From Naegleria gruberi (Eukaryota), in assembly GCA_000004985.1 (NCBI GenBank), contig GG738921.1: a stretch of 64,000 nt of DNA. One strand, given 5' to 3'. The translations under genes were made by a program, and so were the position numbers. The first letter of the stretch is position 1. The number at the start of each line of letters is the position of its first letter. Positions 5,229 to 60,900 of the stretch are shown here, in pieces. Under the pieces are notes generated by a model. The model was not told the origin of the DNA, searched no databases, and saw only the letters and a list, made by a program, of their open reading frames with translations.

Positions 5229-6528
5229 ATGAACTCGCTTAGCCTTAATCTTACTTTGCATTGCGGAAGAGATCTTCCAAAGGTAAGAAGAAATTTCATC
5301 ACAATTTGATTTTTTAATGTTTTAAAATTCTCTATTGATTTGTTTACCATATGATGATGTTGTTGTTATTAATTGCATTGAATTTATGATCATCATTTAG
5401 GCCGATTTGTTATCTTCGATTGATGCCTATGCTGTTGTTATTGTTCCGATTATTGGAGGACAAACCAAAACATTTAAAACAAAATGTGTGCAAGATGACC
5501 CAAATCCTGATTGGGAATTTGATTTGTTCTGTACAGATGTGGATGGAACCAGAGATTGTCTTGTTGAAATTTGGGATGAAGATACTTTGAGAAATGAAAA
5601 GGTTTGCACTGCCATACTTTCTCTTGTTGAGTTGAAATCATCAGGCACATGGCTTGGAAAGCATATAGTCTTGAAATGCTTATCTGGATTCAAACCATTC
5701 AAGGGAGCTAAAGAGTGCTGTATTATCGTATCAGCAAGTGCTCACATTTCTTTTGCTGACCTCACTCGCAAAATCACATCTCCAAACAAGTATGTGGATC
5801 CATCAAAAAAGACTATTGTCTTCCCTTTCTCACCTCATGGTGACAATACTCAACTCTATATTAAAATTTCAGCTGGAAAGAGATTCAAGATTTCGGTTTT
5901 GGACACTTCAGAATTTAGAACAAGACTTGTCATGTTTGAAGTTGCTGGAAAGAATATCACTTCTCAAATTATCAAACTCAAAGAACCAAAGAAAAAGTAT
6001 GGAATTAGCTATTATAGAAAGATTAAGATGAAGAAGGCTGACATTAAATCATGGACAAGCGTCAATCTTTTGGTTTCTAATTGTTCACTAGTTGCAACAA
6101 AGGGTGTGGAAGCTATTGTAAATGAACATGGCTGGTATGGATCCATGACCTTTGATCAAGCTAAAAAGACTTTGAAAAATATTATTGTGGATGAGGAATC
6201 TAAGAGTATTTTCATGCTGGAAAACAACTTTAGCTATATGGTGGACTTTGATTCAGACAACTTTGACCAAAAGGTTTGTCTCTCTGATGAATACTCAGCT
6301 CAAGGATATCATGTCGAGTTTGTATATGCAAAGGGAAATAGATTGAGTATCACTTCACATGGAGAACCAAGAGTTCAAACCAATACAAGAGTAGTATATA
6401 GATATTCTTCACAAGTGAAAGACTCTGAATACGGCACTCCATTCTTCCAATTCAGTGTTGAACTCTATCACAAGATACAACCACAACTTTACCAACTCAA
6501 CAGCTATATTCCTTTAAGTTTGAATTAA
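5229..6528 (+). CDS. C2 domain-containing protein; exon 1 5229..5282, intron 5283..5400 (118 nt), exon 2 5401..6528
   Basis: Exon 1 MNSLSLNLTLHCGRDLPK joins exon 2 ADLLSSIDAYAVVIVPIIGGQTKTFKTKCVQDDPNPDWEFDLF..EIWDED, a canonical C2 beta-sandwich N-terminus. Splice sites are GTAAGA..TTTAG. A long ORF continues to the stop at 6526-6528. Confidence 0.7.
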
Positions 6529-9035
6529 ACTTTATTTTGTTGATCTATGAAAAACCTGCTCTTTACACATGTATTGGAACATTCAAGCAAGATAGATTGT
6601 GTCGAAGGAGTAATCAAGGAAAGGAAATAATCATAATCACTCCTTAGTTCTTCAGATGCGAATGCAAAATTGAGAGCTGAGGATGAAACAGCCATTCTAA
6701 CAATATCCTTATCATTTCTTAATCTATTAGATGCGAAAGCTAAAGATGTTGAATCTGAACTGACTGCCAATTTGACAATTTCTTCTGTATCTCTTATTCT
6801 ATCAGATGCATACTTTAGCAGCGAACCACTATTCTTCAAAATGAGAAGCATAAACTTTGTGTCATCATTTAAATTCAATAACAATTTCTCAATAATATGG
6901 CTATCAATACTTTCATGAAACCGTAAAATAGAGGCAATAATTGACTGTGATAGATTTTGTGGATCTACATGTGCAAAAATTCTACCATGACGTCCACAAG
7001 AGGTTAAAATTGTATCCAGTAAATCTTCATCCTCATAATTGAGCATTTCAAAAGAAAAATTGTCGTATGGGTAGAAAACACCAGAATATATCTTGATGAT
7101 ATTCACGTGACTTGAATTAAAGTAGGCAAGGGATGCTTCTTGTAGCCGTTTCACAAAGGGAAGGTAAATCTCTCCCATATTGCAAAAAAAGTAATTCGTA
7201 CCCTTAACTGATTTGGAGCATGGATCCATGCAATAGAGAGCATATTCACCATAATAATCCAATAATTTTTCATTGAAATGATCTCCATAGATGGAAATAA
7301 AGTATTCTCTATCAAAAAATAGCATTGGATGAGCATATTGCAATGAGGGTTTCTTTTGTGATGGTGGCCTGAGCTGTTGATGAAGTAAGACAAGCTCGGT
7401 CTTGAATTCATCCTTTCCAAAAGAACGACAAATAATCATCTCATAAACTTTTTCCTCTCTAAATCCTTGTTTCAATGCCATATTTACACATTCCTTAATT
7501 ATTTCAATGTTTCCCCTTAATGATCTCGAAAAATTTGCAAATGAGAGAGCATTTCTGCTTGTGGCAAATCTCATAAATTCTGAATTGTTCTTTAAATTAT
7601 CAGAAGCAAACTCTATTATTCTCCAATCAATATCATACATCTGTTTGACAAATTCAAAGTCATCTCTCAATTCCAAAGTAGCACACTTAAAAAATGTATA
7701 GCTCCTTCTCACCAACAGTTCAATAAGATGATGATTAGATCTTAATTCTTTAGGAAATTGCATTGCCGTTTTTAAATCAAATGCTGGTAGAATTGATTTG
7801 ATGAATTCTGCATTCTTCCTTATTGAATCACCAAATAAATTCAATATACTTCCATTTTTAGATAAAAGTTCTTTAGCAACAGAAATGGAATTACGAATCT
7901 CTTTCGATACAAACTCAATCAATTCGTGTTCCCTCTTCAATATTGGTAGTATCAAATCTAAATTGCTCCTCAATCTCTCAGATGCATATTTGAGGGCTTT
8001 TGGGTAGAGTCTTGTGACAATTTGTAAAATCTCCTCGTCATCTACCTCAAAGGATCCATCAAAAACATTTTTCAATACACCTAAATCATCTTTGGCATAC
8101 CTGACTACTTCCTTGATGGTGAAAAATCGTTTTGGAATGAAAGAGGGTGGCAATAGCTCCTTCTCAACTACCATTCTCCAAAATTCTTCTCCTTGTGGTT
8201 GGTAGAGTTGTGAAAATTGCTTGTTGTTATCCTTGTTCATTACCAATTTGAGAGCTAGCTCTGAATATATCTCCTTTTTAATCCATTTACATACGTTCAA
8301 CTCTCCATTCTCCAGTGCAGTGCCTACTATCTCTGGGTCTGCTTTAAATTTTGAATTTGAATATCTGAGCACTGATCCGTAATATTTTACAGCTTGTAAC
8401 ACCAATTCCCTATTCGACTTGATTTCTTTTGCCTTCTTTTTCAATTCTGTATCATTTCTCAATTTTTCACACGTCACATATTTGAATATTCTTGTAGTAA
8501 ACCTAAACAATCCAACAATTCCCAACTCATCCTCATCAGAAAAATCAATTTTTCTCCTCACTTTCTGCAAATCATTTCCACACTCAGATAAATCCAAAGC
8601 AGCTTCCAATAATTCTCTATCAGATCGTAACTCTTTACTGGCAGAACGAAAGCAAACCTGATGCTCCTTCACCACACTCATCATAAACTGCCTATCACTC
8701 GTCAATTGCTGTGATGCATATCTAATCAACCACCCTCTCAACATGATCAATTTCTTCATAAATCCAAAATCATTATTTTCAATCAATGGAAATCTTTTCA
8801 CAAAACATCTCACCGAATAATTATCCTCACACTTTTTCAAACATTCAATATATTCCATCTTTTTTTTAAATAATGCTAATTGATCAATTAATCGGAATTT
8901 TCGTAATTTGTGGAAATTAATATTGTGTGAGTAGAGGTTGGAATTCTTGCATGGTTCCGAGAGGTCATCGAGTAGAATAATAACTGGTTCTCGCCATGAT
9001 GATGATGGTACCATCATTGGCATGGTTGTGTCCAT
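6525..9035 (-). CDS. DUF4116-repeat protein (at least 10 tandem repeats of the [FY]AS.ELR.D.E.V..AV unit), single exon
   Basis: 836-aa ORF. Repeats are YASQQLTSDRQFMMSVVKEH, SASKELRSDRELLEAALD, YASERLRSNLDL, FASDNLKNNSEFMRFA, YASDRIRDTEEIVKLAV, FASNRLRNDKDIVRMAV and FASEELRSDYDYF. The stop codon overlaps the stop of the convergent C2 gene by 4 bp. Confidence 0.75.
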   Translation of the reverse strand: MDTTMPMMVPSSSWREPVIILLDDLSEPCKNSNLYSHNINFHKLRKFRLIDQLALFKKKMEYIECLKKCEDNYSVRCFVKRFPLIENNDFGFMKKLIMLRGWLIRYASQQLTSDRQFMMSVVKEHQVCFRSASKELRSDRELLEAALDLSECGNDLQKVRRKIDFSDEDELGIVGLFRFTTRIFKYVTCEKLRNDTELKKKAKEIKSNRELVLQAVKYYGSVLRYSNSKFKADPEIVGTALENGELNVCKWIKKEIYSELALKLVMNKDNNKQFSQLYQPQGEEFWRMVVEKELLPPSFIPKRFFTIKEVVRYAKDDLGVLKNVFDGSFEVDDEEILQIVTRLYPKALKYASERLRSNLDLILPILKREHELIEFVSKEIRNSISVAKELLSKNGSILNLFGDSIRKNAEFIKSILPAFDLKTAMQFPKELRSNHHLIELLVRRSYTFFKCATLELRDDFEFVKQMYDIDWRIIEFASDNLKNNSEFMRFATSRNALSFANFSRSLRGNIEIIKECVNMALKQGFREEKVYEMIICRSFGKDEFKTELVLLHQQLRPPSQKKPSLQYAHPMLFFDREYFISIYGDHFNEKLLDYYGEYALYCMDPCSKSVKGTNYFFCNMGEIYLPFVKRLQEASLAYFNSSHVNIIKIYSGVFYPYDNFSFEMLNYEDEDLLDTILTSCGRHGRIFAHVDPQNLSQSIIASILRFHESIDSHIIEKLLLNLNDDTKFMLLILKNSGSLLKYASDRIRDTEEIVKLAVSSDSTSLAFASNRLRNDKDIVRMAVSSSALNFAFASEELRSDYDYFLSLITPSTQSILLECSNTCVKSRFFIDQQNKV

Positions 9036-16088: not shown

Positions 16089-16160
16089 GCCGCTATAGCT
16101 CAGAGGAAGAGCTTCGATCTCCTAAGTCGAAGGTCGCCGGTTCGAGCCCGGCTAGTGGTA
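16089..16160 (+). tRNA. tRNA-Arg(CCU)
   Basis: GCCGCTA TA GCTC AGAGGAA GAGC T TCGAT CTCCTAA GTCGA AGGTC GCCGG TTCGAGC CCGGC TAGTGGT A. Cloverleaf with anticodon CCT flanked by T33 and A37, and a canonical GGTTCGAGCC T-arm. The acceptor stem has two G-U pairs. Confidence 0.75.
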
Positions 16161-27049: not shown

Positions 27050-28483
27050 TTAATCAGTTTTGGTCTTCTTTTTTGGTGGCTTGGCAGCCTTTTCATTATT
27101 GCTCACAACTTCCAGAGTGTGCACGAGAGCATTGCAAGCAGTTTCAGTAAGGATATTTCCCTCACTATCTTTGCAGCAAAATCTTGGAACAATAGAGACC
27201 AGCTTGGAAAAGAATGGACACTTGCCATCGTCTCTCTTCTCTTCCAAAATATTGACCAGTTCTTCAGCAAGTTCTTTCTTTGGGAGGTTTCCAGATTCTT
27301 CATCTAGCTCTGCATAAACATCTTTGAGTTCCTTTAAGAGCAATTTCTTGGCGAATTCAGTAAAGAGATCATCAATGCAATTGTTTCCAAATACATCATA
27401 TCTTTCAAAGGATGGAGTTGGAGCTGGTTCTTGAAGTGCCTTATAGAAACAAATGGTGCATAAATCATAGTCATCCTTCTCTGGATCGACATAACGATAA
27501 CCTCTAATTTTCTCTTTACAAGCATTGCAAGAATAGGTATCGAAATTCTCCTCTCCTATAGTTTGGAAAATGTGATCGTGTGGGTGATCGACATCTTTAC
27601 AAATTGGCAAATCAGAGCCCTTTTGTTTCATGACAATCTTTTCACAACAATAGCCACACAAATCATATTCTCCACAATCAAGACAATTGTATCTGATTCC
27701 AGTAATAGGTTCCTCACAAATGTCGCATGTGAATTCGGGCAAATCCTCTTGTTCTTCCTCTTCCTCTTCCTCAAATTCATCAATGGCTTTGACCCTTCCA
27801 ATAATTCTACGTTTGAAGAATGCATTGATCAACTCTCTTTCCACATAACCATAACTATGTCTGCACTGATTGACATTTTCAACTAGCTCATAAAATCTAT
27901 CCTTAGGAAAACAATCAATATGGAAGTTATCACTAGAATCCTTGTCCCAAATATAAGTCTCCCTATGCTCAATCTTGGCACCACACTCGGCACATTCAAC
28001 ACCCCAATATCCATTCTCACCTGGTGTGGAAAATGACAAATCTGTACAACCCAAATCTCTATAGTACATTCTGACAATTTTTATCATCTTTTGTTTCCAA
28101 CTAGTTTCATCTTTCACTAGGTTTAATCTAGCCTCCAAAACCTCTTTCGTCCACTTTTCCTTCTCCTTCATCACATTGAACAGCAAAGGTTCCCACAAGG
28201 CATCAGACAAGGCAAAATTTCTAAATAATTTACAAACTGGTTCGATGCTCTGAGCCAAATCGTACTCATCCAAGAAGGATAATACCCTCAGAAAGAGAGG
28301 TTTAAATCCAATACCATCCATGATCCATTCTGGTGATTTCTCTTGAAATAAGACTCTTGATTTCGAATTATTGTTGTTCGATTGTTCCGAAGTTGTTGAT
28401 TCTTGAGTGTTGTTGTTGATCGGTACGGGATCAGCGAACAAGCAGAGAAAATGATGTAATGGACGAACTTTGATGTCTTTCAT
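27050..28483 (-). CDS. F-box protein with tandem ZZ-type zinc fingers, single exon
   Basis: 477-aa ORF. F-box-like segment: FKPLFLRVLSFLDEYDLAQSIEPVCKLFRNF. Three Cys/His clusters of ZZ type: CAECGAKIEH...HIDCF, CDICEEPITGIRYNCLDCGEYDLCGYCC, CNACKEKIRGYRYVDPEKDDYDLCTICF. Acidic E-rich linker and basic C-terminus. Confidence 0.7.
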   Translation of the reverse strand: MKDIKVRPLHHFLCLFADPVPINNNTQESTTSEQSNNNNSKSRVLFQEKSPEWIMDGIGFKPLFLRVLSFLDEYDLAQSIEPVCKLFRNFALSDALWEPLLFNVMKEKEKWTKEVLEARLNLVKDETSWKQKMIKIVRMYYRDLGCTDLSFSTPGENGYWGVECAECGAKIEHRETYIWDKDSSDNFHIDCFPKDRFYELVENVNQCRHSYGYVERELINAFFKRRIIGRVKAIDEFEEEEEEEQEDLPEFTCDICEEPITGIRYNCLDCGEYDLCGYCCEKIVMKQKGSDLPICKDVDHPHDHIFQTIGEENFDTYSCNACKEKIRGYRYVDPEKDDYDLCTICFYKALQEPAPTPSFERYDVFGNNCIDDLFTEFAKKLLLKELKDVYAELDEESGNLPKKELAEELVNILEEKRDDGKCPFFSKLVSIVPRFCCKDSEGNILTETACNALVHTLEVVSNNEKAAKPPKKKTKTD

Positions 28484-28706: not shown

Positions 28707-28779
28707 GCCGACATAGCTCAGTTGGGAGAGCGTAAGACTGAAGATCTTAAGGTCCCTGGTTCGATCCCTGGTGTCGGCA
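28707..28779 (+). tRNA. tRNA-Phe(GAA)
   Basis: GCCGACA TA GCTC AGTTGGGA GAGC G TAAGA CTGAAGA TCTTA AGGTC CCTGG TTCGATC CCTGG TGTCGGC A. Canonical Phe D-arm, anticodon GAA, perfect acceptor and anticodon stems. One T:T mismatch in the middle of the T-stem. Confidence 0.75.
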
Positions 28780-28836
28780 AATTTTAATTTTCCAATATTC
28801 CTTTCAAACATAAATCTGTCTTTTAGATTTTATTAA

Positions 28837-29662
28837 TAGAGTTCCGGCAAATGCGTATTTTGAAAATGCGCTTTTTTAAAATGCGCATTTTTGGTACTGG
28901 TTTTTTCTGGTAGATATTGAAAGTGGGTATTTGATTAAATTTAGTCAGTGTTTTTCGGTAAATATTGAATTTATTCACTCTTCAACAATTACATCAGAGT
29001 CAATATTGAACATGGATTTTTTTGGCATTACTATATACCTTTGGTTGAAGAAATACTGGTATTTCTATATTCATATCAATTTCCTTTACAGACTTGGTCT
29101 TGAAAGATCCTTTTTTACCTGGTGTTACCAATCCATATGATGCCAATCTATCTTCTTCATCCACACCATGAGAATCAGTTGGCTGAGTTGAAGTGGAATT
29201 TGGATTTTGTGATTGATTTTGTGTAGGATCTGCAGAACTCGAACCAATTTGTATCTAATGAACTGGAACCAAGTTACTATCTCCATGGTAAATATTATGG
29301 AACTAAAGACAACAATGGATCAAGTTTCCGAATTCATACCAGAAAAGGAGAAAGAGTTTGCAGCTTTGGCAGAAACAAAGAAACTACAAAAGAGCTTTTT
29401 CGAATCTCTCAAAAAACCCAAACAAACGGATCAATAATTATCGAAATTAGAAAGAAACTGTTGGGAATAAATTCAATGTTTATCAATTAATTTCGAAAAA
29501 TACCGATTAAACACCATGTGGTGGAACTGGTTTTGATGGGTTCAATAAATTTCGAAAAACGTCGATTGATGGCAATCACCAACACCCACCAAAAAAAACC
29601 GGTACTGAAAATGCGCATTTTTTGAAAATGCGCTTTTTAAATGCGCATTTGCCGGAACTCTA
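28837..29662. mobile_element. MITE-like non-autonomous DNA element (~826 bp) with ~70-bp terminal inverted repeats and no long ORF
   Basis: Left end: TAGAGTTCCGGCAAATGCGTATTTTGAAAATGCGCTTTTTTAAAATGCGCATTTTTGGTACTGG. Right end, as reverse complement: TAGAGTTCCGGCAAATGCGCATTTAAAAAGCGCATTTTCAAAAAATGCGCATTTTCAGTACCGG. Each TIR holds three AAATGCGC(A/T)TTTT subrepeats. Flanks are consistent with a 2-3 bp TSD (TA or AAT). It lies ~57 bp 3' of tRNA-Phe and ~70-110 bp 5' of the next gene start. Confidence 0.65.
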
Positions 29663-29734
29663 ATGTAAAGATAGTTTCAAATTTGCTACAATGAGCGTTT
29701 CAGCGATCACACATCAAAACACAATCCATTAAAC

Positions 29735-30538
29735 ATGCTCAAAACGGTACAACCACGGCTAAAAGAACGAAAAAAAATGTCGCTATTTACACTCCTGCTT
29801 GCCATTTGTTTATGTGGCTTGATTTATGCCATGCCACATGTCAATGCCACGGCTAGTCAATGCACCAGACCATTTAACACATACAGTTCAAGTGCCAAGA
29901 GAAGTACAGCTGCAGCAGTTGCTCTTTCTAAAACATTCGATTTTTCACAAGATATTTTAGCTGCACAAACAGCTGTCAACCAAGAATCTGATGTTTCGAC
30001 ATTGGCAGCTACAAGCTTATTTTCCTTCGGTAAGCTTTCTGCAAAAGCCAAACAAAATGTGAAAATGGCACCAAAACATTTCACTGGTAAAACTGGACCA
30101 TTATTCGCCAAGATTCAGAATCGTATAATGGAATTCACTGGATTGGACGAAACTGCATGTGTTGCATGTCGATTGAATTGTCTAGATGCCATTCCTACCT
30201 TTGGAACTATCTTTAGCGAATGTGAAAATCAATTCTATTATTATGGATGTCAAAAAGTAGCTCCATGTCATTCCATGTCAGATGGCAATGTCGTATTGGA
30301 AACTGCTGTTGGTATTTGTTTGGAAAGAAATAAGTGTAAATTGGTAGATTCATTGGTAGATTTGCAAAATACTAGAAGAAGAATTGGATTTGCTAGGAGA
30401 CGAATGGTTTCGCCAACAATAGACGAAATTAAGAAGGGAGTTGTTTCAAGAGTTGGACAATATATTGATAATTATAATAGAAAACCATTTTCTTTTGGTA
30501 AAAAGAGAGGTTTGTTTGGAGGTAGAGGTAGAAATTAA
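29735..30538 (+). CDS. Secreted cysteine-rich hypothetical protein (signal peptide; start may be the internal Met at ~29777)
   Basis: ORF MLKTVQPRLKERKKMSLFTLLLAICLCGLIYAMPHVNA, then a mature region with about 10 Cys and a basic G/R-rich C-terminus. No recognisable domain. Confidence 0.5.
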   Translation: MLKTVQPRLKERKKMSLFTLLLAICLCGLIYAMPHVNATASQCTRPFNTYSSSAKRSTAAAVALSKTFDFSQDILAAQTAVNQESDVSTLAATSLFSFGKLSAKAKQNVKMAPKHFTGKTGPLFAKIQNRIMEFTGLDETACVACRLNCLDAIPTFGTIFSECENQFYYYGCQKVAPCHSMSDGNVVLETAVGICLERNKCKLVDSLVDLQNTRRRIGFARRRMVSPTIDEIKKGVVSRVGQYIDNYNRKPFSFGKKRGLFGGRGRN

Positions 30539-30758: not shown

Positions 30759-32306
30759 ATGAATTCCAGAATATTTGATTGTGCCCAGACGAATAATAGC
30801 GAGAGGATGGAAATTCTGCTCGGAACCGATGAAAAGAAGAGGAAAATTCTTGCCAATGGAAGAAATAAGAAGAATTTGACTCCGCTGCATATTGCTTGTG
30901 ATTGGAATGCTGCTCAGTGTGTAAGAGTCTTGTTGGAGGCTGGTGCTAATCGTGAGGCTGTTGATGATCATGGAAGAAATGCCTTCTCATTTGCAAAGAG
31001 AGGTGGATTTATTGAAATTATCAACATGTTGGAAACTTACTACCCGAATGGTAGTTTGATCAATGAAAAGATTGGAAATAAGGGTGGTGCTTCGTCTTCC
31101 TCTGCATCAGCATCATCATCATCAGATGTGAAGGAAAATAATGCAAAGATTAGTGATTTAACAATGAATATTGTGCAAGCATCATCAAATCCAATTAAGG
31201 AAAACAGTCAAGAGAAGGAGGTGAGATTTGAAGCTCCTCTTAAAAGAACTGCTTCTTATTTTTCAAAGAGTTCAAAGGTGCCAAAAATGGAAGATGATGA
31301 ATCTGTGAGCAGTGCTGGCTATTCACAATCAGATGATGAATTAGATAGTCCAATAGTCAGTTCTAGAATTCAATGGGTTTCGACTGAGAAACGTAAACAA
31401 AGACCAAAATCAAATCCAAACAAGATATCACCAATATCAAGAGTTAGACCAGTAACAAACCAAGTATCAAAGAATACAGGAAGCGAAACAAAGTCATGTG
31501 CAACAACATTTGATATTATCAAAACAAAACCAATCAGTAAGAAGGAAACTAAACTTGTCACTGAGAGTAAGGACTTTGATGAGAATGAAAAACAAGTTCT
31601 TCTCAATATGAAACGTCAATATTTCAAGATTAACTTACAAGGAGCCGAATATACTATTCATGCAAGACTATTACAAAATGATTCTGAAAAGAAAGTGATA
31701 TGTTGTCATGGATTTTCATACTGCCAGTCTGGTTATCAATGGATCAAGTTGGCTGCAGCTCTTCATCAACGTGGATGGGATGTCATATTATTGGATTTAC
31801 CAGGCTTTGGAAAGAGTTCTGGCGCTACTCATCAAACAAGAATTTGGAAAAATGATGGACCTGATATTGTGAAAACTATTTTGGAAGGTTTGTCTTTACC
31901 AAGGATATGTGTTATTGGAAGATGTGGAGGAGCTGCAACACTCATGAGAACATTTGTAAAATATCCTCATCTATTTCACAAACGATTTTTGACCCACAAC
32001 TCAGTCATTGGTGAATGGCCACTTCAATTCGACAATCTCCTCCAGAAAACCAAAACAAAACTCATGGTGACATGGTGTGCAGATCCTGATCACTCTAAAA
32101 TGTGTGTCGCCTACAAGCATTTGAACTTTTTGAGAAAGACCAATTTTGAAAATGTTAAATTCATGGATATAGACCTCAACTTTTTAGGTAGTGGAAATGG
32201 ATATGTTGAAGGGATAACTAGAACTAATTTTGTAAATTACAACATTCCAAGTCCAGAATATCTAAAGATGGCTATAACCCACTTGGAAGAAGCTTATGCA
32301 CCATAA
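30759..32306 (+). CDS. Ankyrin-repeat + alpha/beta-hydrolase fold fusion protein, single exon
   Basis: N-terminus has ANK repeats: NLTPLHIACDWNAAQCVRVLLEAGANREAVDDHGRNAFSFA. The middle is S/K-rich. The C-terminus has an alpha/beta hydrolase core: VICCHGFSYCQSGYQWIKLAAALHQRGWDVILLDLPGFGKSSG..RICVIGRCGGAA. Confidence 0.7.
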   Translation: MNSRIFDCAQTNNSERMEILLGTDEKKRKILANGRNKKNLTPLHIACDWNAAQCVRVLLEAGANREAVDDHGRNAFSFAKRGGFIEIINMLETYYPNGSLINEKIGNKGGASSSSASASSSSDVKENNAKISDLTMNIVQASSNPIKENSQEKEVRFEAPLKRTASYFSKSSKVPKMEDDESVSSAGYSQSDDELDSPIVSSRIQWVSTEKRKQRPKSNPNKISPISRVRPVTNQVSKNTGSETKSCATTFDIIKTKPISKKETKLVTESKDFDENEKQVLLNMKRQYFKINLQGAEYTIHARLLQNDSEKKVICCHGFSYCQSGYQWIKLAAALHQRGWDVILLDLPGFGKSSGATHQTRIWKNDGPDIVKTILEGLSLPRICVIGRCGGAATLMRTFVKYPHLFHKRFLTHNSVIGEWPLQFDNLLQKTKTKLMVTWCADPDHSKMCVAYKHLNFLRKTNFENVKFMDIDLNFLGSGNGYVEGITRTNFVNYNIPSPEYLKMAITHLEEAYAP

Positions 32307-48252: not shown

Positions 48253-49516
48253 TTTGATGTAATTTTTTTAAAATTTTAATTATAATAAAATTAAAAGATT
48301 TCTTGTTGTGATGGTGATCATCAAATAGTGAAGATTCAGACCATTAGTATTAAAATTCAAGTTTGTTGTTATCAATTAAATCAAACAAATAAAAAATTTG
48401 AAAAAAAAATAATCACTTCATCTCAGCATTGCTGATTATCTTCATCATTTCAATACGGAATACATTGATATTCAATGTACATCATCTTTGGATATCCATC
48501 AATAGTAGAATAGTAATTTTATTGTTTGAAATTTTAATCATCAAGAAATTTAATATCATCATCACTTGGGAAAAATTTCAAATCAATAAATACATCTCGG
48601 ATGTTGTTAGAACAGGTTAATTTGCTGTTCTAATAGTATTTTAAATAGTATTCCGCAAGTTTACTCTTTGAAATTATTTTTAATTTGGCTCAAAGTCGAT
48701 TTTCATCAAAATCATTAAAATCGGCCTATCTACTTGGTCATCACAAAAACCATCAATTGGAGATTGTTCATAATAGTAAATAGTATTTGTGGGGTCAATT
48801 TTGGAGACTGGATCTTTGTCTTCATTGGAATAGATACAAGATTATTTTCAACATGTAATGAATAATACCTCGTCATCTACTTGACCAAATCAAAAACTTT
48901 CTTCTAGTAGTACTATTTATTTTCACAATATATAACATCTTCATCGTTACTTTCTTCAATAGCATTGTCATTGTCATGGTGGAGGTTTCATCACCTATCC
49001 ACACATGTACAATATCGGAACATCATTCCAATATCATGGAGATGCTCCAATAAGTGTGGAGAATCATCCCACCAAGTTTTTTATCTTTAATAAAAGTGTT
49101 TCTCTTTTTTCACACTTTCTCAAGATTTGCAATTGTTCCTTCACATGATACTATTGATTTCAGAATCATATTTTGTTGTTAATTTTCAAAATGGATCATT
49201 ATTTGAGGAGATTTTGAGATACTTGATTTTACAGATCTAATAAAATTGCAGATACATTTTGTAATAACTGCTTAACATGAACTTCTGCAAAATTACAACA
49301 AACAAGCATTCAATAAGGCGGACATTTCCTATTGTCCTCGATGAATATTGATTCTTGAATATATTACTAATGAAAGAATGCGTGCGCAGCAGTATTTTTC
49401 ATTCTCACTAGTATAACCAAGTAGAAGTTTGTTTTAAAAATTTAAAAACTTCAAAAAAAATTAAATCACTTCTCGCCCACAACAAACTTGCAGCAGCACA
49501 TCATTTCTTTAGAAGA

Positions 49517-50593
49517 ATGACAAGTACTGGCACCTCCTCCAGTAATGGTAGAACCATGAAGATTTTGGTAGAGAGGGTTATTATGAATGATAATTCAGCA
49601 ACATCTTCATCTTTGAATACAACAATACCTGATCATTGGGATGTTCCGAAAAATTCATCATCTTCAACATCTTCACCTACTACAGTAGTAATACCTCCAG
49701 AAAAGTTTAAAGATCCTTGGATTGGAGTGAATCATGATAAATCAGTACTCGATGGAATGTCAATGATGAAGGATTTCTTATTTAATTCACCATCAATTCC
49801 GAGTGATGAAGAACTTCCTCAATTGAAACCGAATTGGGATAAATTAATGAACCCTAGTGAGTCTTCTGATGAATATCAAGTGACATGGATTGGACATTCG
49901 ACCTTTCTCATTCAGTACAGAGGTGTAAATATAATAACAGATCCTGTATTTTCAGAGAGATGTAGTCCTTCACAGTATTTTGGTCCAAAGAGAATTAAAC
50001 CAATTCCATTTCCAGATATCTCTAAATTGCCAAAGATTCATTTTGTGATTATATCTCATAATCACTACGATCATTTGGATGAACATGCATTCAAAGAGAT
50101 ACAGAAACATCATGATCCAATTTTCTTGTTACCATTCAAAATGAAATACAAGTGGATGATGAAACATTATTCAAATAGTGATGCCGAGAAGGAAAAACTT
50201 GTAGATTTGGATTGGTGGAAGGAAACTACATTCAAGGTTACAGCTGAGAATCAGACAGTTTCCAATCTGTCATTCGTATGTCTGCCAGCTCAGCATTGGA
50301 GTTCAAGAACAGGGTTTGATAGAAATCACGTCTTGTGGGGTTCTTGGGGATTCAAGTTTGATTATACTGATGGCAATGAGAATGTGACAAGATCTTTCTG
50401 GCATGCAGGTGATACAGGTTACAAGTAAGTAGACTTTTAATATTCATTCCTTAATAATTTTTTCAATAGTGGACAAACATTTAATCAAATTGGAGAACGA
50501 TTTGGTCCAATTGACTTTTCAATGATTCCAATTGGTGCCTATGAACCACGTTGGTTCATGAGTGATCAACATGTTGATCCAGAAGAAGCCATT
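49517..50593 (+). CDS. NAPE-PLD-like metallo-beta-lactamase-fold (zinc) hydrolase; exon 1 49517..50424, intron 50425..50469 (45 nt), exon 2 50470..50593 continuing into N-gap 50594-50867 (3' partial)
   Basis: [32 protein letters not shown] (metal-binding HxHxDH), AGDTGY|N|[40 protein letters not shown]. This closely matches the conserved C-terminal block of animal NAPE-PLD (..[33 protein letters not shown]). The N-terminal ~110 aa are S/T-rich. Confidence 0.8.
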
Positions 50594-51119: not shown

Positions 51120-54100
51120 ATGTCAACAACATTCGACCAAGTCTTCCATGCAGTTTCGGAAGGAAACATTGAATTTTTGAGACACATTGATTTACGTCCA
51201 TTTATTAATCATGAACAAGATGATCCCGACGATGAAGGTATTGTTACATTATTATGTACAGCGTGCGGCAGAGGACATTTGAAAATTGTAGAATTATTAT
51301 TGAATGTTGATGGAGTTGATGTAAACAAATGTGTATGTTTTCATAGATTAATTATTTGATGTTGAATGTAAATCTTTGAAATTTATATATGAAAATAGGG
51401 ACCGTTGTTTTTTGCTTGCCAAAACGGATACGTAGAAATTGTAAAATTATTGTTGAGTGTTGATGGAATTGATGTTAATCAAATTGTATGTAATAATGGA
51501 ATGAATAATGGAATGGTATATTTATATTAATGATTTTTATGATTATCTATAATAGAGAGTGTTACGTGAAGCATGTGAAAAAGGCTATTTTGAAATTGTA
51601 AAATTATTATTGGACTTTGATGGAATTAATGTTGACGCTTATGTATGTAGCAAATATTAATATTAAGAAGTTTAATATTAATTCTTCTTATTAGAAAGCA
51701 TTGCATGGAGCATGTTATGGAGGGAATTTTAATATTGTAAAATTATTACTTGCCAAGAATGCTCGAATAGGAAAAGAAGAAAGAAAAGAATATGATAAAA
51801 AAATCAAACCGAAAGTAAGTTTAGTTTTCAGATAAGTGTCAAATATAGTCCAATATTAGTTCAATCTCGAATATACTTTGGATGAATTAAAGGATAAAAT
51901 CTCACAATTACGAATTCAACATTGGAGAAATGTGANNNNNNNNNNNNNNNNNNNNNNNNNNNNNNNNNNNNNNNNNNNNNNNNNNNNNNNNNNNNNNNNN
52001 NNNNNNNNNNNNNNNNNNNNNNNNNNNNNNNNNNNNNNNNNNNNNNNNNNNNNNNNNNNNNNNNNNNNNNNNNNNNNNNNNNNNNNNNNNNNNNNNNNNN
52101 NNNNNNNNNNNNNNNNNNNNNNNNNNNNNNNNNNNNNNNNNNNNNNNNNNNNNNNNNNNNNNNNNNNNNNNNNNNNNNNNNNNNNNNNNNNNNNNNNNNN
52201 NNNNNNNNNNNNNNNNNNNNNNNNNNNNNNNNNATAATGATAAGAGAGAGTTGATAAATGAAATTGAAAGAGTTGAAAATAGTTTGAGAGAACATGAAGT
52301 TAATTTTGAATGTTTCCAAAATGTTAACAAATTGAAATTGAAAAAGAAAGATTTGTTCAAGTCACTAGCTGAAATCAAAGACAAAATAGAAGATATTGAA
52401 TATGCTAAAGACACACTTATATTCGAAATTAAAACTCAAAAAAGAAACAAGATTGGTAAAGTTGAGGAAATTGAAAGATTGGAGAAGAAACTTTCTGACA
52501 TGATTCAGGAATTATCAAACATGCACGAAAGAAAATCAGAAATCCAAAACGACTTGATGGAGCTGATTCCTAAATTTCCTGAAATTATTATTGAAATGGA
52601 ACAACCATTAGCAATAGATGGTGTTGTCATTTCATCATCAATGACACCAAAAGAAAAATTCAGAGTATTTGCACTTCAAAACTCTATTTTACTTTTAAAT
52701 ACTCAATTTTCAAATTATACTAACATTCAAACACTTCACACTGGATTATCAGTTGTTTACAAAGCAAGCAAATCTAATAGTCAGGTGGTTATTCTCAAAG
52801 AAATTTCTCTTTCAGAAAATAATTGTGAAACAGTAATGAATGAAATTATGAATTTGGTTATACTCAAAGGTCATCCTAGAATTATCAAATTGAATGGTGT
52901 ATTTATTGAATCACAATTTAATAAGGTTTATATTGAAACACCATATTATTCAAATGGAAATTTACTGGAGTATATCAACAAGATTAGAAATCATCATGAT
53001 TTACCAACTTTGAAGAACATGTTGAGAAGTTTATTTAGAAAAATGACAGAAACACTTCAATTTATCCATTCCAAAGATATTCTGCACAGAGATTTAAAAC
53101 CTCAAAATATTTTGGTGAATGAAAATGGAGAACCAATTATTGCAGATTTTGGATCAAGTAAGAAACTAATTGCTCAATTGACAAATAATACAATGGGAGT
53201 TGGAACATTGAAATATATGGCACCAGAAGTGAAAAGACAAGAAGAATCACCAAGTGAAAAATCAGACATTTGGTCATTGGGTGTTTCATTGTATGAATGT
53301 TGGCAATTGATTCAACAAATAAGTATGATGAATAATGCAACAGTTGAAATATTGAACTTTGACTCGAAGGGTAAGGTAGTTTTACCTACCAGTACTTTGA
53401 ATGATGAAATTGATATAACATTGATGAAAATGTTGAGTCACATGTTCAATAGCAATCCAGAAGACAGACCAAGTTCATTAACACTACTGACAGATTCAGA
53501 TTATTTCACAAATGAAAATCCTACAACAGATATACTTTCTAAATCTAATCAAAAAGAATTGGAAGGTTCTGAAAAGATATCACTTTGGCAAGCAAGATTA
53601 AAGAAGATGAAACAATTTTTGCCTGAAAGCACAGAAGGAGAAATCAAGGTTGACATCTATAGACACCGTCTATTGGAAGATATTGCCTCTATATATAAGG
53701 ATTTGATACCAATAGGGTATTCAGTGATATTTTACAAAACATTTGTGAAATATAAGGGAGAGACTGGAATAGACGCAGGAGGATTATCCAATGAGATGTA
53801 TTCTAAATATATTGAAGCCATACTGGAAAGCAAACATTTTCAAAATAGCGAAAGCTCACCAAATGAAAATTTCATTTTAACTGATGAACCACTCACAGAT
53901 GAATCTAAAAATCAATTGAGAACACTTGGGTTGTTATTGAAAAAGTTATTAATTGACTGTGACGACAAGACAGTTTATCTTCCATTGAATAGCTTTATAT
54001 TTTATTATTTATTGAATGGAAATGCTCTCAACAAAGAAACACTCCAATTTAATGCTATATCCCTTTTACTATCAAAATTCTTGAGAGAATATGATTTTGA

Positions 54101-54773
54101 ATTGGATAATCAAATATTTAGTGTGAAAAAATGTAAAAATGATGAAGAATTACAATCAATTACAATGGAAGAAACATTTATTGATGTTTTATCAAAGAGT
54201 GAGAAACCATTAATAATGGAAAATGTTCAATTATTCATCATTTCACAATTATATTCATATTTTTATTCTGATTTAAAGATTGAAAAATTGAAATTAATCA
54301 AACAAGGATTTGACTGGTTTAATTTGACTAAATTCAAACAAAGCTCAAAATTACCACCCAAGTTGAAAGAATTCCTAGACCTCCAAGGATCAAATTTTGA
54401 TGAGAAGTGTTTGAGTGTGAATGAATTGAAAATTCTCCTCTCAGGTCAATCATATATTGATGCTGATTTATTATTGAATGAAATAGACATGACCAGAATT
54501 TCACCAATAATGCAAGATCACTTCACTAAATGTATTAGAAAATTAACAAAAAGTCAATTGAGACAATTACTTGTTTGGATGACTTCACTTTCAAGCATTC
54601 CAATCAGAGGTTTTTCAAGAAAGATCTCAATTCGTGAATATAACAGATTTGAATCTCATACCTGTTCATTTGTATTTGATATTCCATCTCAAATAACCAA
54701 TTATGAACAATTTGAAACTCAATTCATGAATTGTTTGAGATTGTCATCTGTTGCAACTATGGAAGATCAATAG
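51120..54773 (+). CDS. Ankyrin-repeat / coiled-coil / protein kinase / HECT ubiquitin-ligase multidomain protein (copy A); exons 51120..51332, 51399..51485, 51556..51642, 51695..51814, 51860..(gap 51936-52233)..54773; introns 66, 70, 52, 45 nt
   Basis: Four ANK repeats, one per exon (..GPLFFACQNGYVEIVKLLLSVDGIDVNQI, RVLREACEKGYFEIVKLLLDFDGINVDAY, KALHGACYGGNFNIVKLLLAKNA). A coiled-coil region follows. The kinase domain has VVILKEI (K), HRDLKPQNILV, ADFGSSK, GTLKYMAPE and DIWSLGVSLYE. The HECT domain has GIDAGGLSNEMY and ..FESHTCSFVFDIPSQITNYEQFETQFMNCL, including the catalytic Cys. Confidence 0.8.
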
Positions 54774-55423
54774 GACAATTCTTGTTGGTATTCTTGTCAC
54801 TGCACCAACAGGATTAATTAGAGTATTACTGACTGGTGGTAGTACTTGAGCAATTGGTGGTTGATTCAAATCTACGATCATTATCAGAATTCATTAAAAT
54901 CCAGCTTCTGAAGTGCAGCTTTGATTAGCTTGCCCCAATTCAGTGGAAATTGTTTTTCTTGCATTTGTAAATCATATAATCATCAAATTTAAGGTACTCA
55001 ATTACTTTTGAAGTTTTGGAACTAAGCTGATTTGATATTGTGTTTTTTCTTTGATGGATTGAAATCCTAAGAAGAATTCATGTTATTGCCAACGAACATA
55101 CAACAAGCAACAATAAGGGTAGAACGAGATTGGATGTTTTAAGTGATAATCACTTATTATCCAATAAAAAAAATTCAGCAAATGGCTCTTTGTGTCTGAT
55201 TTTCGGAAGCACACCATCTACCATCTATTTAATTTTTATTGGAGTTCTGATCATTTTGGAATTTATTCTTCATAACCCAATTGGAATCATCATCAATGTT
55301 TTCCAATTATCAAAATAATATTAGTATTTTTGTGGAAATTATTGTATCTATGATTTTACGGTGGTATACAGATATTTCTTTAATATAGCAAAGCATTAAA
55401 GATGATGAAAATTGGAGTGGGTA

Positions 55424-57949
55424 TTAATTCTCCAAAGTGTTCTCCGTATCATTGAAATCTTCCATTGTTGCAACAGATGACAATCTCAAACAATTCATGA
55501 ATAGTGTTTCAAATTCTTCATAAGTGGTTATTTGTGAAGGAATATCAAATGAGAAAGAACATGTATGGGCTTCAAATCTTTTTTGCTCACGAATTGAGAT
55601 CTTTCTTGAAAAACCTCTAATCGGAATGCTTGAAAGTGCTGTCATCCAAACAAGTAATTGTCTCAATTGACTATTTGTTAATTTTCTTATACATTTAGTG
55701 AGGAAATCTTTCATAGTTTCCGAAACAAAATAGAAATTAATTTCATTTAACAATAAATCATCATCAATATATGATTGACCTGATAGGAGAATTTTCAATT
55801 CATTCACACTCAAATCTTGTTCAACAAAGTTTGGTCCTTGAAGGTGGAAAAATTCTCTCAATTCAGATTCAGTTGAAATACTAAAACTACAAATCAATTG
55901 AGTTTTGAATTGTTTCAAATTGAACCAATCAAATCCTTCTTTGATTAATTTCAATTTTTCCATTCTTATAGCACTGTAAAAGTATGGATGTAATTGAGAA
56001 ATGATATAGAGATGGATATTGTCCATAATAAGTGGTTTCTCAGTCTTTGATAAAACATCTGTGAACGTTTCTTCATATGCAATAGATTGTAATTCCTTAT
56101 CATTCTTACATTTTCTCAGATTCATAATTTGATTATCTAATTCAAAATCATATTCTCTCAAGAATTTTGAAAGTGTCAAGATCATGTCATTGATGTGTAG
56201 TGCTTGTTTCTTATAAATTATATCACCATTCAATAAATAATAGAATATAAAACTATTCAATGGAAGATAAACTGTCTTGTCGTCACAGTCAATTAATAAC
56301 TTTTTCAATAACCATCCAAAGGCCTTTAACTGAATTCTTGATTCATCTGTGAGTGGTTCATCAGTTAGAATGAAATTTTCGTTGGAAGATGTTTCACTCT
56401 TTTGAAAATGTTTGCTTTCCATTAACATGGATTCAGTATATTTGGAATAGAGTTCATTTGACAAACCTCCTACGTCTATCCCTTTCTCTTCCTTAAATTT
56501 TACAAATGTTTTGTAAAATATTGAATAGTTGTTATCTTTAGTCATGACTTTTTCAACAGTTAAAGAAGTATCTGTCAATAAATTTTCTCTGTCTATGTCA
56601 AATCTAATTTCGTTGCTAGGTGAAACTAAATAACCTTCTCTTCGGGCTAACGCAAGTTGTTTGAGTTTTTTCAATCTTGCCTGCCACAATGATAACTTTT
56701 CGGAGCTATCTAGTTTTTGATTTGATGTAGAAAGTAATTCGACAGTAATTGGATTTTCATTTGTGAAATAATCTCCATTTTCATTCACCAAAATATTTTG
56801 AGGTTTTAAATCTCTGTGAAGAATATCTTTGGAATGAATAAATTGAAGTGTTTCCGTGATTTTTCTAAATAAACTTCTCAACATGATTTTCAAAGTTTTA
56901 GTGTCGTGTTGAGGTTTAATCTTGTTGACATATTCCAATAAATTTCCATTTGAATAATATGGCGTTTCAATATAAATCTTATTAAAATTAGGTTCGATGA
57001 ACACACCATTCAATTTGATAATTCTTGAATGTACTTTCAATCTTACAATATTCATAATTTCATTCATAATAGCATCACAATTATTGTCTGTTGATTGAGA
57101 AAGTGAAATTTCTTTAAGAATAACCACTTGATTGTTTGACTTGCTTGATTTGTAGACAACTGATAATCCACTATGAACTGTTCCCATGATTGTATAATTT
57201 GAAAATTGAGTATTAAAAAGAAATATTGAGTTTTGAAGTGCAAATATTCTGAATTTTTCTTCAGGTGTGTTGCTTGTTGAAATAACAACACCATCTGCTG
57301 TTAGTGGTTGTTTCATTTCTACAATTATTTCTGGGAATGTTGAAATCAATTCCATTAAATTCTGTTCAATTTCTGTTTTTTGTTCATTCAATTCGGAAAT
57401 CTTTTTTCCCATTTCAGAAAGTTTCTTCTCCAATCTTTCAATATCTTCATTGTTTGTTCCAATTTTGTTTTTTCTAAGCTTTTTAATTTGAAGTCCAATT
57501 TCGTCCTTTTCCAAATCAATTTCATCAATGTCGTCCTTAATTAAGGCAAGTGATTTTAAAAGATCTTTCTTTTTCAATTTCAACTTGTTAATATTTTGAA
57601 AACATTCAAGATTTGTTGCATTTTCTCTAATGTTATCTTCCATTCTCTCAACTTGTTCCAACAATTCCTTGTTGTCCTTATCAAATTCACTTAATTTTCC
57701 AGAATAGTTTGTAATTATTTCGTCTCTAATTCTATCTCTCTCTTCAGTAAGTAGATACAACTCTTTAAATTCAACACTCTTTTCACAAGCGGACATTTCA
57801 GAGATTTGTTTTTCGATTCTATTTAATTCTTTTTTGAGCAAATGAATAGTTTGAGCTGATTTTGGAATTCTCACAACTGGTTCAACAACTGTAATACGAC
57901 TTGCTTCCATTAATTGATTTTCCAAAATTTTGATTCGTTCTAAATGTTC
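55424..57949 (-). CDS. Paralog (copy B) of the coiled-coil / kinase / HECT protein, with an in-frame ~117-codon deletion removing the kinase DFG/activation-loop/APE/C-lobe; 5' end lost in N-gap 57950-62085
   Basis: Same coiled-coil (LECFQNINKLKLKKKDLLKSLALIKDDIDEID..), kinase N-lobe and catalytic loop (VVILKEISL, HRDLKPQNILVNENG). It then jumps directly to DYFTNENPITVELL at about 56775. An intact HECT domain follows: GIDVGGLSNELY, ..FEAHTCSFSFDIPSQITTYEEFETLFMNCL. The ORF remains open into the gap at its 5' side. Confidence 0.75.
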   Translation of the reverse strand, partial: EHLERIKILENQLMEASRITVVEPVVRIPKSAQTIHLLKKELNRIEKQISEMSACEKSVEFKELYLLTEERDRIRDEIITNYSGKLSEFDKDNKELLEQVERMEDNIRENATNLECFQNINKLKLKKKDLLKSLALIKDDIDEIDLEKDEIGLQIKKLRKNKIGTNNEDIERLEKKLSEMGKKISELNEQKTEIEQNLMELISTFPEIIVEMKQPLTADGVVISTSNTPEEKFRIFALQNSIFLFNTQFSNYTIMGTVHSGLSVVYKSSKSNNQVVILKEISLSQSTDNNCDAIMNEIMNIVRLKVHSRIIKLNGVFIEPNFNKIYIETPYYSNGNLLEYVNKIKPQHDTKTLKIMLRSLFRKITETLQFIHSKDILHRDLKPQNILVNENGDYFTNENPITVELLSTSNQKLDSSEKLSLWQARLKKLKQLALARREGYLVSPSNEIRFDIDRENLLTDTSLTVEKVMTKDNNYSIFYKTFVKFKEEKGIDVGGLSNELYSKYTESMLMESKHFQKSETSSNENFILTDEPLTDESRIQLKAFGWLLKKLLIDCDDKTVYLPLNSFIFYYLLNGDIIYKKQALHINDMILTLSKFLREYDFELDNQIMNLRKCKNDKELQSIAYEETFTDVLSKTEKPLIMDNIHLYIISQLHPYFYSAIRMEKLKLIKEGFDWFNLKQFKTQLICSFSISTESELREFFHLQGPNFVEQDLSVNELKILLSGQSYIDDDLLLNEINFYFVSETMKDFLTKCIRKLTNSQLRQLLVWMTALSSIPIRGFSRKISIREQKRFEAHTCSFSFDIPSQITTYEEFETLFMNCLRLSSVATMEDFNDTENTLEN

Positions 57950-60900
57950 NNNNNNNNNNNNNNNNNNNNNNNNNNNNNNNNNNNNNNNNNNNNNNNNNNN
58001 NNNNNNNNNNNNNNNNNNNNNNNNNNNNNNNNNNNNNNNNNNNNNNNNNNNNNNNNNNNNNNNNNNNNNNNNNNNNNNNNNNNNNNNNNNNNNNNNNNNN
58101 NNNNNNNNNNNNNNNNNNNNNNNNNNNNNNNNNNNNNNNNNNNNNNNNNNNNNNNNNNNNNNNNNNNNNNNNNNNNNNNNNNNNNNNNNNNNNNNNNNNN
58201 NNNNNNNNNNNNNNNNNNNNNNNNNNNNNNNNNNNNNNNNNNNNNNNNNNNNNNNNNNNNNNNNNNNNNNNNNNNNNNNNNNNNNNNNNNNNNNNNNNNN
58301 NNNNNNNNNNNNNNNNNNNNNNNNNNNNNNNNNNNNNNNNNNNNNNNNNNNNNNNNNNNNNNNNNNNNNNNNNNNNNNNNNNNNNNNNNNNNNNNNNNNN
58401 NNNNNNNNNNNNNNNNNNNNNNNNNNNNNNNNNNNNNNNNNNNNNNNNNNNNNNNNNNNNNNNNNNNNNNNNNNNNNNNNNNNNNNNNNNNNNNNNNNNN
58501 NNNNNNNNNNNNNNNNNNNNNNNNNNNNNNNNNNNNNNNNNNNNNNNNNNNNNNNNNNNNNNNNNNNNNNNNNNNNNNNNNNNNNNNNNNNNNNNNNNNN
58601 NNNNNNNNNNNNNNNNNNNNNNNNNNNNNNNNNNNNNNNNNNNNNNNNNNNNNNNNNNNNNNNNNNNNNNNNNNNNNNNNNNNNNNNNNNNNNNNNNNNN
58701 NNNNNNNNNNNNNNNNNNNNNNNNNNNNNNNNNNNNNNNNNNNNNNNNNNNNNNNNNNNNNNNNNNNNNNNNNNNNNNNNNNNNNNNNNNNNNNNNNNNN
58801 NNNNNNNNNNNNNNNNNNNNNNNNNNNNNNNNNNNNNNNNNNNNNNNNNNNNNNNNNNNNNNNNNNNNNNNNNNNNNNNNNNNNNNNNNNNNNNNNNNNN
58901 NNNNNNNNNNNNNNNNNNNNNNNNNNNNNNNNNNNNNNNNNNNNNNNNNNNNNNNNNNNNNNNNNNNNNNNNNNNNNNNNNNNNNNNNNNNNNNNNNNNN
59001 NNNNNNNNNNNNNNNNNNNNNNNNNNNNNNNNNNNNNNNNNNNNNNNNNNNNNNNNNNNNNNNNNNNNNNNNNNNNNNNNNNNNNNNNNNNNNNNNNNNN
59101 NNNNNNNNNNNNNNNNNNNNNNNNNNNNNNNNNNNNNNNNNNNNNNNNNNNNNNNNNNNNNNNNNNNNNNNNNNNNNNNNNNNNNNNNNNNNNNNNNNNN
59201 NNNNNNNNNNNNNNNNNNNNNNNNNNNNNNNNNNNNNNNNNNNNNNNNNNNNNNNNNNNNNNNNNNNNNNNNNNNNNNNNNNNNNNNNNNNNNNNNNNNN
59301 NNNNNNNNNNNNNNNNNNNNNNNNNNNNNNNNNNNNNNNNNNNNNNNNNNNNNNNNNNNNNNNNNNNNNNNNNNNNNNNNNNNNNNNNNNNNNNNNNNNN
59401 NNNNNNNNNNNNNNNNNNNNNNNNNNNNNNNNNNNNNNNNNNNNNNNNNNNNNNNNNNNNNNNNNNNNNNNNNNNNNNNNNNNNNNNNNNNNNNNNNNNN
59501 NNNNNNNNNNNNNNNNNNNNNNNNNNNNNNNNNNNNNNNNNNNNNNNNNNNNNNNNNNNNNNNNNNNNNNNNNNNNNNNNNNNNNNNNNNNNNNNNNNNN
59601 NNNNNNNNNNNNNNNNNNNNNNNNNNNNNNNNNNNNNNNNNNNNNNNNNNNNNNNNNNNNNNNNNNNNNNNNNNNNNNNNNNNNNNNNNNNNNNNNNNNN
59701 NNNNNNNNNNNNNNNNNNNNNNNNNNNNNNNNNNNNNNNNNNNNNNNNNNNNNNNNNNNNNNNNNNNNNNNNNNNNNNNNNNNNNNNNNNNNNNNNNNNN
59801 NNNNNNNNNNNNNNNNNNNNNNNNNNNNNNNNNNNNNNNNNNNNNNNNNNNNNNNNNNNNNNNNNNNNNNNNNNNNNNNNNNNNNNNNNNNNNNNNNNNN
59901 NNNNNNNNNNNNNNNNNNNNNNNNNNNNNNNNNNNNNNNNNNNNNNNNNNNNNNNNNNNNNNNNNNNNNNNNNNNNNNNNNNNNNNNNNNNNNNNNNNNN
60001 NNNNNNNNNNNNNNNNNNNNNNNNNNNNNNNNNNNNNNNNNNNNNNNNNNNNNNNNNNNNNNNNNNNNNNNNNNNNNNNNNNNNNNNNNNNNNNNNNNNN
60101 NNNNNNNNNNNNNNNNNNNNNNNNNNNNNNNNNNNNNNNNNNNNNNNNNNNNNNNNNNNNNNNNNNNNNNNNNNNNNNNNNNNNNNNNNNNNNNNNNNNN
60201 NNNNNNNNNNNNNNNNNNNNNNNNNNNNNNNNNNNNNNNNNNNNNNNNNNNNNNNNNNNNNNNNNNNNNNNNNNNNNNNNNNNNNNNNNNNNNNNNNNNN
60301 NNNNNNNNNNNNNNNNNNNNNNNNNNNNNNNNNNNNNNNNNNNNNNNNNNNNNNNNNNNNNNNNNNNNNNNNNNNNNNNNNNNNNNNNNNNNNNNNNNNN
60401 NNNNNNNNNNNNNNNNNNNNNNNNNNNNNNNNNNNNNNNNNNNNNNNNNNNNNNNNNNNNNNNNNNNNNNNNNNNNNNNNNNNNNNNNNNNNNNNNNNNN
60501 NNNNNNNNNNNNNNNNNNNNNNNNNNNNNNNNNNNNNNNNNNNNNNNNNNNNNNNNNNNNNNNNNNNNNNNNNNNNNNNNNNNNNNNNNNNNNNNNNNNN
60601 NNNNNNNNNNNNNNNNNNNNNNNNNNNNNNNNNNNNNNNNNNNNNNNNNNNNNNNNNNNNNNNNNNNNNNNNNNNNNNNNNNNNNNNNNNNNNNNNNNNN
60701 NNNNNNNNNNNNNNNNNNNNNNNNNNNNNNNNNNNNNNNNNNNNNNNNNNNNNNNNNNNNNNNNNNNNNNNNNNNNNNNNNNNNNNNNNNNNNNNNNNNN
60801 NNNNNNNNNNNNNNNNNNNNNNNNNNNNNNNNNNNNNNNNNNNNNNNNNNNNNNNNNNNNNNNNNNNNNNNNNNNNNNNNNNNNNNNNNNNNNNNNNNNN

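Follow-up and report, generated by a model that had tools for sequence, protein, structure and literature searches.

What occupies the space between the tRNA-Phe(GAA) gene and the gene for a putative secreted protein in a 64,000-nucleotide stretch of Naegleria gruberi contig GG738921.1 (assembly GCA_000004985.1) is the question raised by this locus. A preliminary description, made from the sequence alone, had considered the inverted-repeat-bracketed DNA found there as a non-coding insertion resembling a MITE, or miniature inverted-repeat transposable element, and had likened its position to the tRNA-gene targeting of mobile elements in dictyostelids. The whole 64-kb stretch, hereafter the window, has about 34% GC, long stop-free open reading frames (ORFs) and several N runs, features that a scaffold of this genome should show, and is nuclear DNA of N. 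gruberi. Our analysis indicates that the element, at 28838-29661, is probably non-autonomous and arose by internal deletion from a cut-and-paste DNA transposon of the PIF/Harbinger type in the N. gruberi nuclear genome. In this context, its DNA-transposon-like character was supported by the terminal inverted repeats (TIRs), the subterminal repeats, and an interior homologous to a gene that adjoins a DDE_Tnp_4 transposase gene.

The inverted repeat bracketing the element was recovered as two arms of 83 nt (28837-28919 and 29580-29662), which are 80% complementary without gaps, and whose outermost 19 nt (TAGAGTTCCGGCAAATGCG) are the same at both ends. Within these arms lies a perfect 18-bp TIR, reading AGAGTTCCGGCAAATGCG at the left end (28838-28855, plus strand) and recurring without a mismatch, on the other strand, at the right one (29644-29661, minus strand). 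The local inverted-alignment score was 112.5, whereas 300 shuffles averaged 28 and reached at most 51.5; elsewhere in the window the median score was 32, and the value of the element was surpassed only by a palindromic gene pair at 54-55 kb. While the arms of about 70 bp reported earlier are real, the symmetry runs further in, to approximately 28990 on the left and from approximately 29455 on the right. The left subterminal region (28856-28990, plus strand) displays imperfect inverted homology to the right one in a gapped alignment against the reverse complement of the right arm, and the inner part of the arms alone scored 41.5 by gapped inverted alignment (shuffle mean 21, maximum 38.5). The right subterminal region (29455-29643, minus strand) contains a 59-bp tandem duplication (29483-29508/29542-29567), owing to which the right arm is longer. 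The outer boundaries of the inverted repeat are sharp. Moreover, the terminal 19 nt are perfectly identical, against a similarity of about 75-80% between the remaining parts of the arms, and since a uniform decay would leave such ends with a probability of about 0.8^19 = 0.014, the termini appear to be functionally constrained within a family of elements, instead of representing the eroded remains of a once-perfect palindrome. Two Rfam matches in the arms (mir-9457, 23.7 bits versus a cut-off of 90; and Atu_C9) were weak and sub-threshold, and were dismissed as chance.

As previously described, each arm carries three AAATGCG(C/T) motifs. In the left array (28849-28891, plus strand), AAATGCGT, AAATGCGC, and AAATGCGC follow each other with a 15-nt period, placing the GCG(C/T) cores 15, 30, and 45 nt from the end, and in the right array (29608-29650, minus strand) the GCGC cores stand 15, 28, and 45 nt from the end. 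In its complete form, AAAATGCGCATTTT, the motif is a palindrome. All eight occurrences of AAATGCGC or its complement in the window fall within the element, and the motif is absent from all other promoters of the window. At 28853-28871 and 29613-29633, adjacent motif copies constitute GC-cored hairpins followed by T runs, similar to bacterial terminators on both strands; four such sites were found in the arms, versus 0.9 expected from shuffles. The left site lies about 75-95 nt downstream of tRNA-Phe and could in principle stop read-through by RNA polymerase III (Pol III).

The interior of the element had been regarded as AT-rich and non-coding, and neither term is sustained. With 34% GC the element equals the window average, whereas the neighboring intergenic DNA has 17-33% GC. 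The largest start-codon ORFs are, as reported, of 69 and 74 aa, no intact gene exists within the element, and the longest of its open frames lacks significance (p = 0.07). Nevertheless, a protein-coding gene remnant was detected by phmmer, BLASTP, and tblastn as a match to P0019, a metagenomic protein of 315 aa. This remnant of an accessory (ORF1-like) gene, at 29015-29230 on the minus strand, matches residues 128-205 of P0019 and P0021, and is contained in an 84-codon open frame (29003-29254, minus strand) with no ATG at its start. Against a library of 1.84 billion representative proteins, the frame matched P0019 with a phmmer E value of 8.6e-9, and the core of the BLASTP alignment was ungapped, with 27 of 37 residues identical (73%; YGLVTPGKKGSFKTKSVKEIDMNIEIPVFLQPKVYSN versus FGLLTPGKKGLFKTKPMKAIDVHTEIPVFLQPKVFSN). 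Conversely, a tblastn search with the P0019-type protein yielded this region (42% over 78 aa, residues 128-205) as the sole significant match in the window. A second phmmer match, P0020, is a Ser/Thr/Asn-rich repeat protein that aligned with the low-complexity part of the query and was treated as compositional.

In the central segment (29255-29454), plus-strand open frames of 74-87 codons had no detectable relatives. Pfam searches of all open frames inside the element produced no match, and no transposase or Tc1/mariner remnant. Likewise, the concatenated six-frame translation of the element, compared with 5.8 billion proteins through a word index, gave no match at E<=10; since even a self-hit was lacking, no gene is annotated inside the element.

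The link between this remnant and a transposase comes from the genomic context of P0019, which, together with three near-identical sequences, derives from two short metagenomic contigs. On the 2681-bp contig (JGI 3300050339, ENA ERZ22067504), the P0019 gene is located head-to-head, at about 25-100 bp, with a gene matching PF01609 (DDE_Tnp_1) and PF13359 (DDE_Tnp_4), the latter being the family of PIF/Harbinger and HARBI1 transposases. This divergent layout recurs on the 1848-bp contig (JGI 3300059473, NCBI GCA_041447055.1), which was recovered from other samples and where the upstream gene is cut by the contig end and has no family recorded. Because the P0019 gene lies divergently beside a DDE_Tnp_1/DDE_Tnp_4 gene, the arrangement can be recognized as a PIF/Harbinger-type layout. 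Both contigs stop 160-195 bp past the stop codon of the P0019-type gene, as might be expected if the assemblies had broken where a repeated element ends; the subterminal region of the N. gruberi element is comparably long, at about 165 bp. P0021 found no match among viral contigs.

PIF/Harbinger transposons are known to encode a transposase of 400-500 aa and a Myb-like protein of 300-400 aa, to generate 3-bp duplications, to have TIRs of about 15 bp, and to spawn deletion-derived MITEs such as mPing (PMC9710019, PMC2836001). The perfect 18-bp TIR and the three 8-bp motifs per end, located at mirrored distances, match this expectation (PMC9710019). Furthermore, the size of P0019 (315 aa) and its divergent position would fit the second PIF/Harbinger protein, which carries a Myb/SANT/MADF-like domain, so that P0019 is at most a putative protein of this kind. 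The element is flanked by a candidate target-site duplication, AAT, with the left copy at 28835-28837 and the right copy at 29662-29664, and under this parse it measures 824 bp (28838-29661, AGAG...CTCT). A 3-bp duplication is what PIF/Harbinger elements predict, the agreement being weak with one copy in A+T-rich flanks. The length of 824 bp is at or above the usual MITE limit (under 600-800 bp); MITEs also typically have no coding capacity and many homogeneous copies, and here a gene remnant is retained and one copy occurs in the 64-kb window.

The element would have arisen from an ancestor that carried both the transposase and the accessory genes. Deletions would then have taken the transposase gene plus both ends of the accessory gene, whose middle part was kept together with the two termini of the element. 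By analogy with the zebrafish Harbinger3_DR element, the AAATGCGC motifs are putative binding sites of the accessory protein (PMC9710019), and mobility of the element would depend on both proteins being provided in trans. Its insertion probably took place in the A+T-rich spacer between tRNA-Phe and the secreted-protein gene, extending the intergenic region to about 1.25 kb, and the empty site before insertion would read TTTTATTAAT followed directly by GTAAAG. By ORF coordinates, the divergent intergenic region holding the element has 1251 bp, and the remaining intergenic gaps of the window have about 50-350 bp, with a single exception of 942 bp; this unusually long host region is consistent with an insertion. 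A syntenic empty site was sought through homologues of the flanking genes in other heteroloboseans, namely a N. fowleri ZZ-domain homologue, a homologue of the ZZ gene on a metagenome contig from ENA, and one of the ankyrin-hydrolase gene on a metagenome contig from JGI; none had a tRNA gene nearby, gene order was not conserved, and no such site was found.

A number of points count against the PIF/Harbinger assignment. The tie between the TIRs of the element and a DDE_Tnp_4 transposase is indirect, and an autonomous partner sharing these ends was not seen in the window or, by pattern, in metagenomic, prokaryotic, and viral collections. No N. gruberi protein matched the 84-residue query among the 1.84 billion representative proteins. 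P0019 itself has no Pfam match (E<=1) and no sequence match in the PDB; its single-sequence AlphaFold model is unusable, with a predicted local distance difference test (pLDDT) score of 34, and its helices at 45-61, 69-83, and 89-103 are merely suggestive. A single copy of the element was seen, with no second one in the 63 kb of flanking window sequence or in roughly 75 kb of DNA from other heteroloboseans. Finally, plant PIF elements usually have TAA/TTA and not AAT, and a TA duplication is equally compatible with the flanks.

Regarding relatives of the termini, the 17-nt terminal core GAGTTCCGGCAAATGCG had no further match in the 64 kb with up to 3 mismatches allowed (<=3). In metagenome contigs, the 18-mer of the terminus gave 40 matches, all single and mostly in G+C-rich bacterial sequences, with similarity not extending beyond them; the sole A+T-rich one (L004) had no partner arm. 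The terminus 15-mer produced only chance matches in viral contigs. The motif-array pattern retrieved 102 matches in prokaryotic genomes and 9 in viral contigs, which were unrelated tandem minisatellites with a period of 13-17 bp, none of them with the terminus.

The ambiguity of the flanks opens the way to a different superfamily. Besides AAT/AAT, this single copy can be parsed with TA/TA (element 28839-29660) or TAAT/TAAT (element 28838-29660), and a Tc1/mariner-type, Stowaway-like non-autonomous element at 28839-29660, with a TA duplication and with the P0019-like piece as unrelated captured or filler DNA, might be proposed, which we consider improbable. Read as GAGTTCC...GGAACTC, the element is indeed bordered by TA at both ends, and some Tc1-type elements have long TIRs with internal repeats, which agrees with the arms described here. 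The element also resembles Stowaway-like MITEs of the Tc1/mariner superfamily in having TIRs and a possible TA duplication, and in lying close to genes in A+T-rich DNA. However, the TA parse is an automatic consequence of any AAT/AAT parse in which a T and an A extend the TIR, and neither the six-frame protein search nor Pfam on the internal frames detected a remnant of Tc1/mariner type. Moreover, the sole internal homology is to a gene linked to a DDE_Tnp_4 transposase, not a Tc1/mariner one, and 824 bp exceeds the typical Stowaway size.

The weight placed on P0019 invites a second objection, that it is an ordinary host gene merely beside a transposase, and that the element holds a fragment of its N. 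gruberi counterpart, either as a pseudogene or as a pick-up by a TIR element of another superfamily. The lack of a recognized domain in P0019 would agree with this, as would the fact that the transposase linkage is seen on one short contig only, the divergent gene of the second contig being of no recorded family. On the other hand, the fragment is placed exactly between TIRs with subterminal repeats, the size of 315 aa and the divergent pairing with DDE_Tnp_4 match the two-gene plan of PIF/Harbinger, and the search yielded no full-length N. gruberi homologue of P0019, so that this explanation is also unlikely. Least plausible is a non-mobile local palindrome, be it an inverted duplication or regulatory or structural DNA whose repeated host-factor sites would serve the tRNA gene or the divergent promoters; although it would accommodate the single copy in the DNA examined, the palindromic AAAATGCGCATTTT, of a kind that dimeric factors bind, the excess of hairpin-plus-T-run sites given by motif pairs, and the 21-nt inverted repeat that tRNA-Phe has of its own, it leaves unexplained the internal remnant of a transposase-linked gene and the perfect, sharply bounded termini with flanking direct repeats, and the motif is missing from every other promoter in the window.

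As a PIF/Harbinger derivative, the element can be compared with mPing of rice, which is likewise a short non-autonomous product of internal deletion of a two-gene PIF/Harbinger transposon (Ping), with TIRs, a 3-bp duplication, and a location near genes, and which needs ORF1 and transposase in trans (PMC2836001). They differ in that mPing has 430 bp, a TAA/TTA duplication, many copies, and a known parent (Ping), whereas the element described here has 824 bp, keeps a recognizable piece of the accessory gene, and has AAT as candidate duplication. Regarding the subterminal repeats, AAATGCGC stands three times at either end, in an arrangement like that of the repeated subterminal motifs of the zebrafish Harbinger3_DR/Harbinger3N_DR pair, where a Myb-like protein binds a 9-bp motif and recruits the transposase (PMC9710019); the TIRs and motifs share no sequence similarity with ours, for which binding is proposed only by analogy.

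Only a small fraction of N. gruberi repeats can be assigned to known transposon types (PMC12344493), and our literature search found no paper describing MITEs or Harbinger elements in Naegleria. In this regard, a defined terminus, a motif, and an accessory-gene fragment provide a handle to annotate the family and to trace its autonomous parent. Otherwise this is a routine transposon relic, which would gain interest only if its copies across the genome cluster at tRNA genes or if its right end drives the secreted-protein gene.

Concerning the first of these possibilities, the tRNA-Phe(GAA) gene is located outside the element at 28707-28779 (plus strand), as predicted by ARAGORN and with an Rfam tRNA score of 67.9 bits, and is followed by TTTT runs at 28782-28785 and 28788-28791. 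The T-stem mismatch mentioned in the preliminary description corresponds to one non-standard pair, U51:U63, and the distance of 57 nt from the 3' end of the gene to 28837 was also correct. A 21-nt inverted repeat (28554-28574/28807-28827) brackets the tRNA-Phe gene, with 19 of 21 positions complementary, 232 nt between the arms, and no flanking direct repeat; none was obtained in 200 shuffles of the region, and it is one of only two such close inverted repeats in the window.

The parallel with tRNA-targeting mobile elements is less convincing. The TRE5/TRE3 and DGLT-A elements of dictyostelids and Ty3 of yeast are retrotransposons that occur at a statistically fixed distance from Pol III genes over many copies. 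Our element shares with them a gene-dense host genome and a tRNA gene within about 60 bp, but it is one copy of a DNA transposon. No such element lies near the sole other tRNA gene of the window, that for tRNA-Arg (16089-16160). Since the parallel rests on one insertion, with the second tRNA gene unoccupied, nothing here shows targeting of tRNA genes by the element. The 57-nt spacer next to tRNA-Phe has 17.5% GC, and a preference for A+T-rich targets would be a simpler explanation; PIF/Harbinger elements do show extended target sequence preferences (PMC2836001). It would be a long shot to propose a heterolobosean PIF/Harbinger lineage preferring sites just downstream of Pol III genes, with AAAATGCGCATTTT palindromes as sites of the accessory protein. 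If true, this lineage would represent an independently evolved DNA-transposon counterpart, in a compact protist genome, to the tRNA-targeting retroelements of dictyostelids and yeast.

On its other side, the element sits, as stated earlier, in a short spacer 5' of the next gene, since 72 nt separate 29662 from the ATG at 29735, and 114 nt from the ATG at 29777. This downstream gene (29735-30538, plus strand) is a 267-aa ORF (253 aa from ATG 29777), with no Pfam match. The protein had been called Cys-rich and secreted, of which the signal-peptide-like N terminus was upheld, while 11 Cys in 267 aa make it only moderately Cys-rich. Among the neighboring genes, the ORF at 27050-28483 (minus strand), beside the element, has 100% identity to NAEGRDRAFT_59833, a hypothetical protein of N. 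gruberi encoded on a 207-kb scaffold, and the ORF at 30759-32306 has 100% identity to a predicted protein of the same species. A Pfam scan of ten large ORFs of the window revealed no transposase gene.

Other repeats were also observed in the window. A 30-nt hairpin (9089-9118/9169-9198), 97% complementary and with a 50-nt loop, is found some 55 bp upstream of where the ORF at 6525-9035 (minus strand) starts, and may represent a regulatory hairpin or a palindromic element of very small size. At 33222-35480/43247-45499 there is an inverted segmental duplication, 98% identical over 1586 nt and then 82% over 612 nt, which carries two DOMON/ferric-reductase genes (857 and 853 aa) and whose copies flank about 7.7 kb. 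Direct duplicates at 49225-49838 and 62994-63636, which are 90-100% identical and flank a 4.1-kb N run (57950-62085), may stem either from a recent duplication or from an artefact of assembly or haplotypes. Finally, a large imperfect palindrome extends over 52234-57681, with arms 71-88% alike; its ORF at 52251-54773 (plus strand) encodes protein kinase and HECT domains according to Pfam, and is mirrored by the ORF at 55424-57925 (minus strand).

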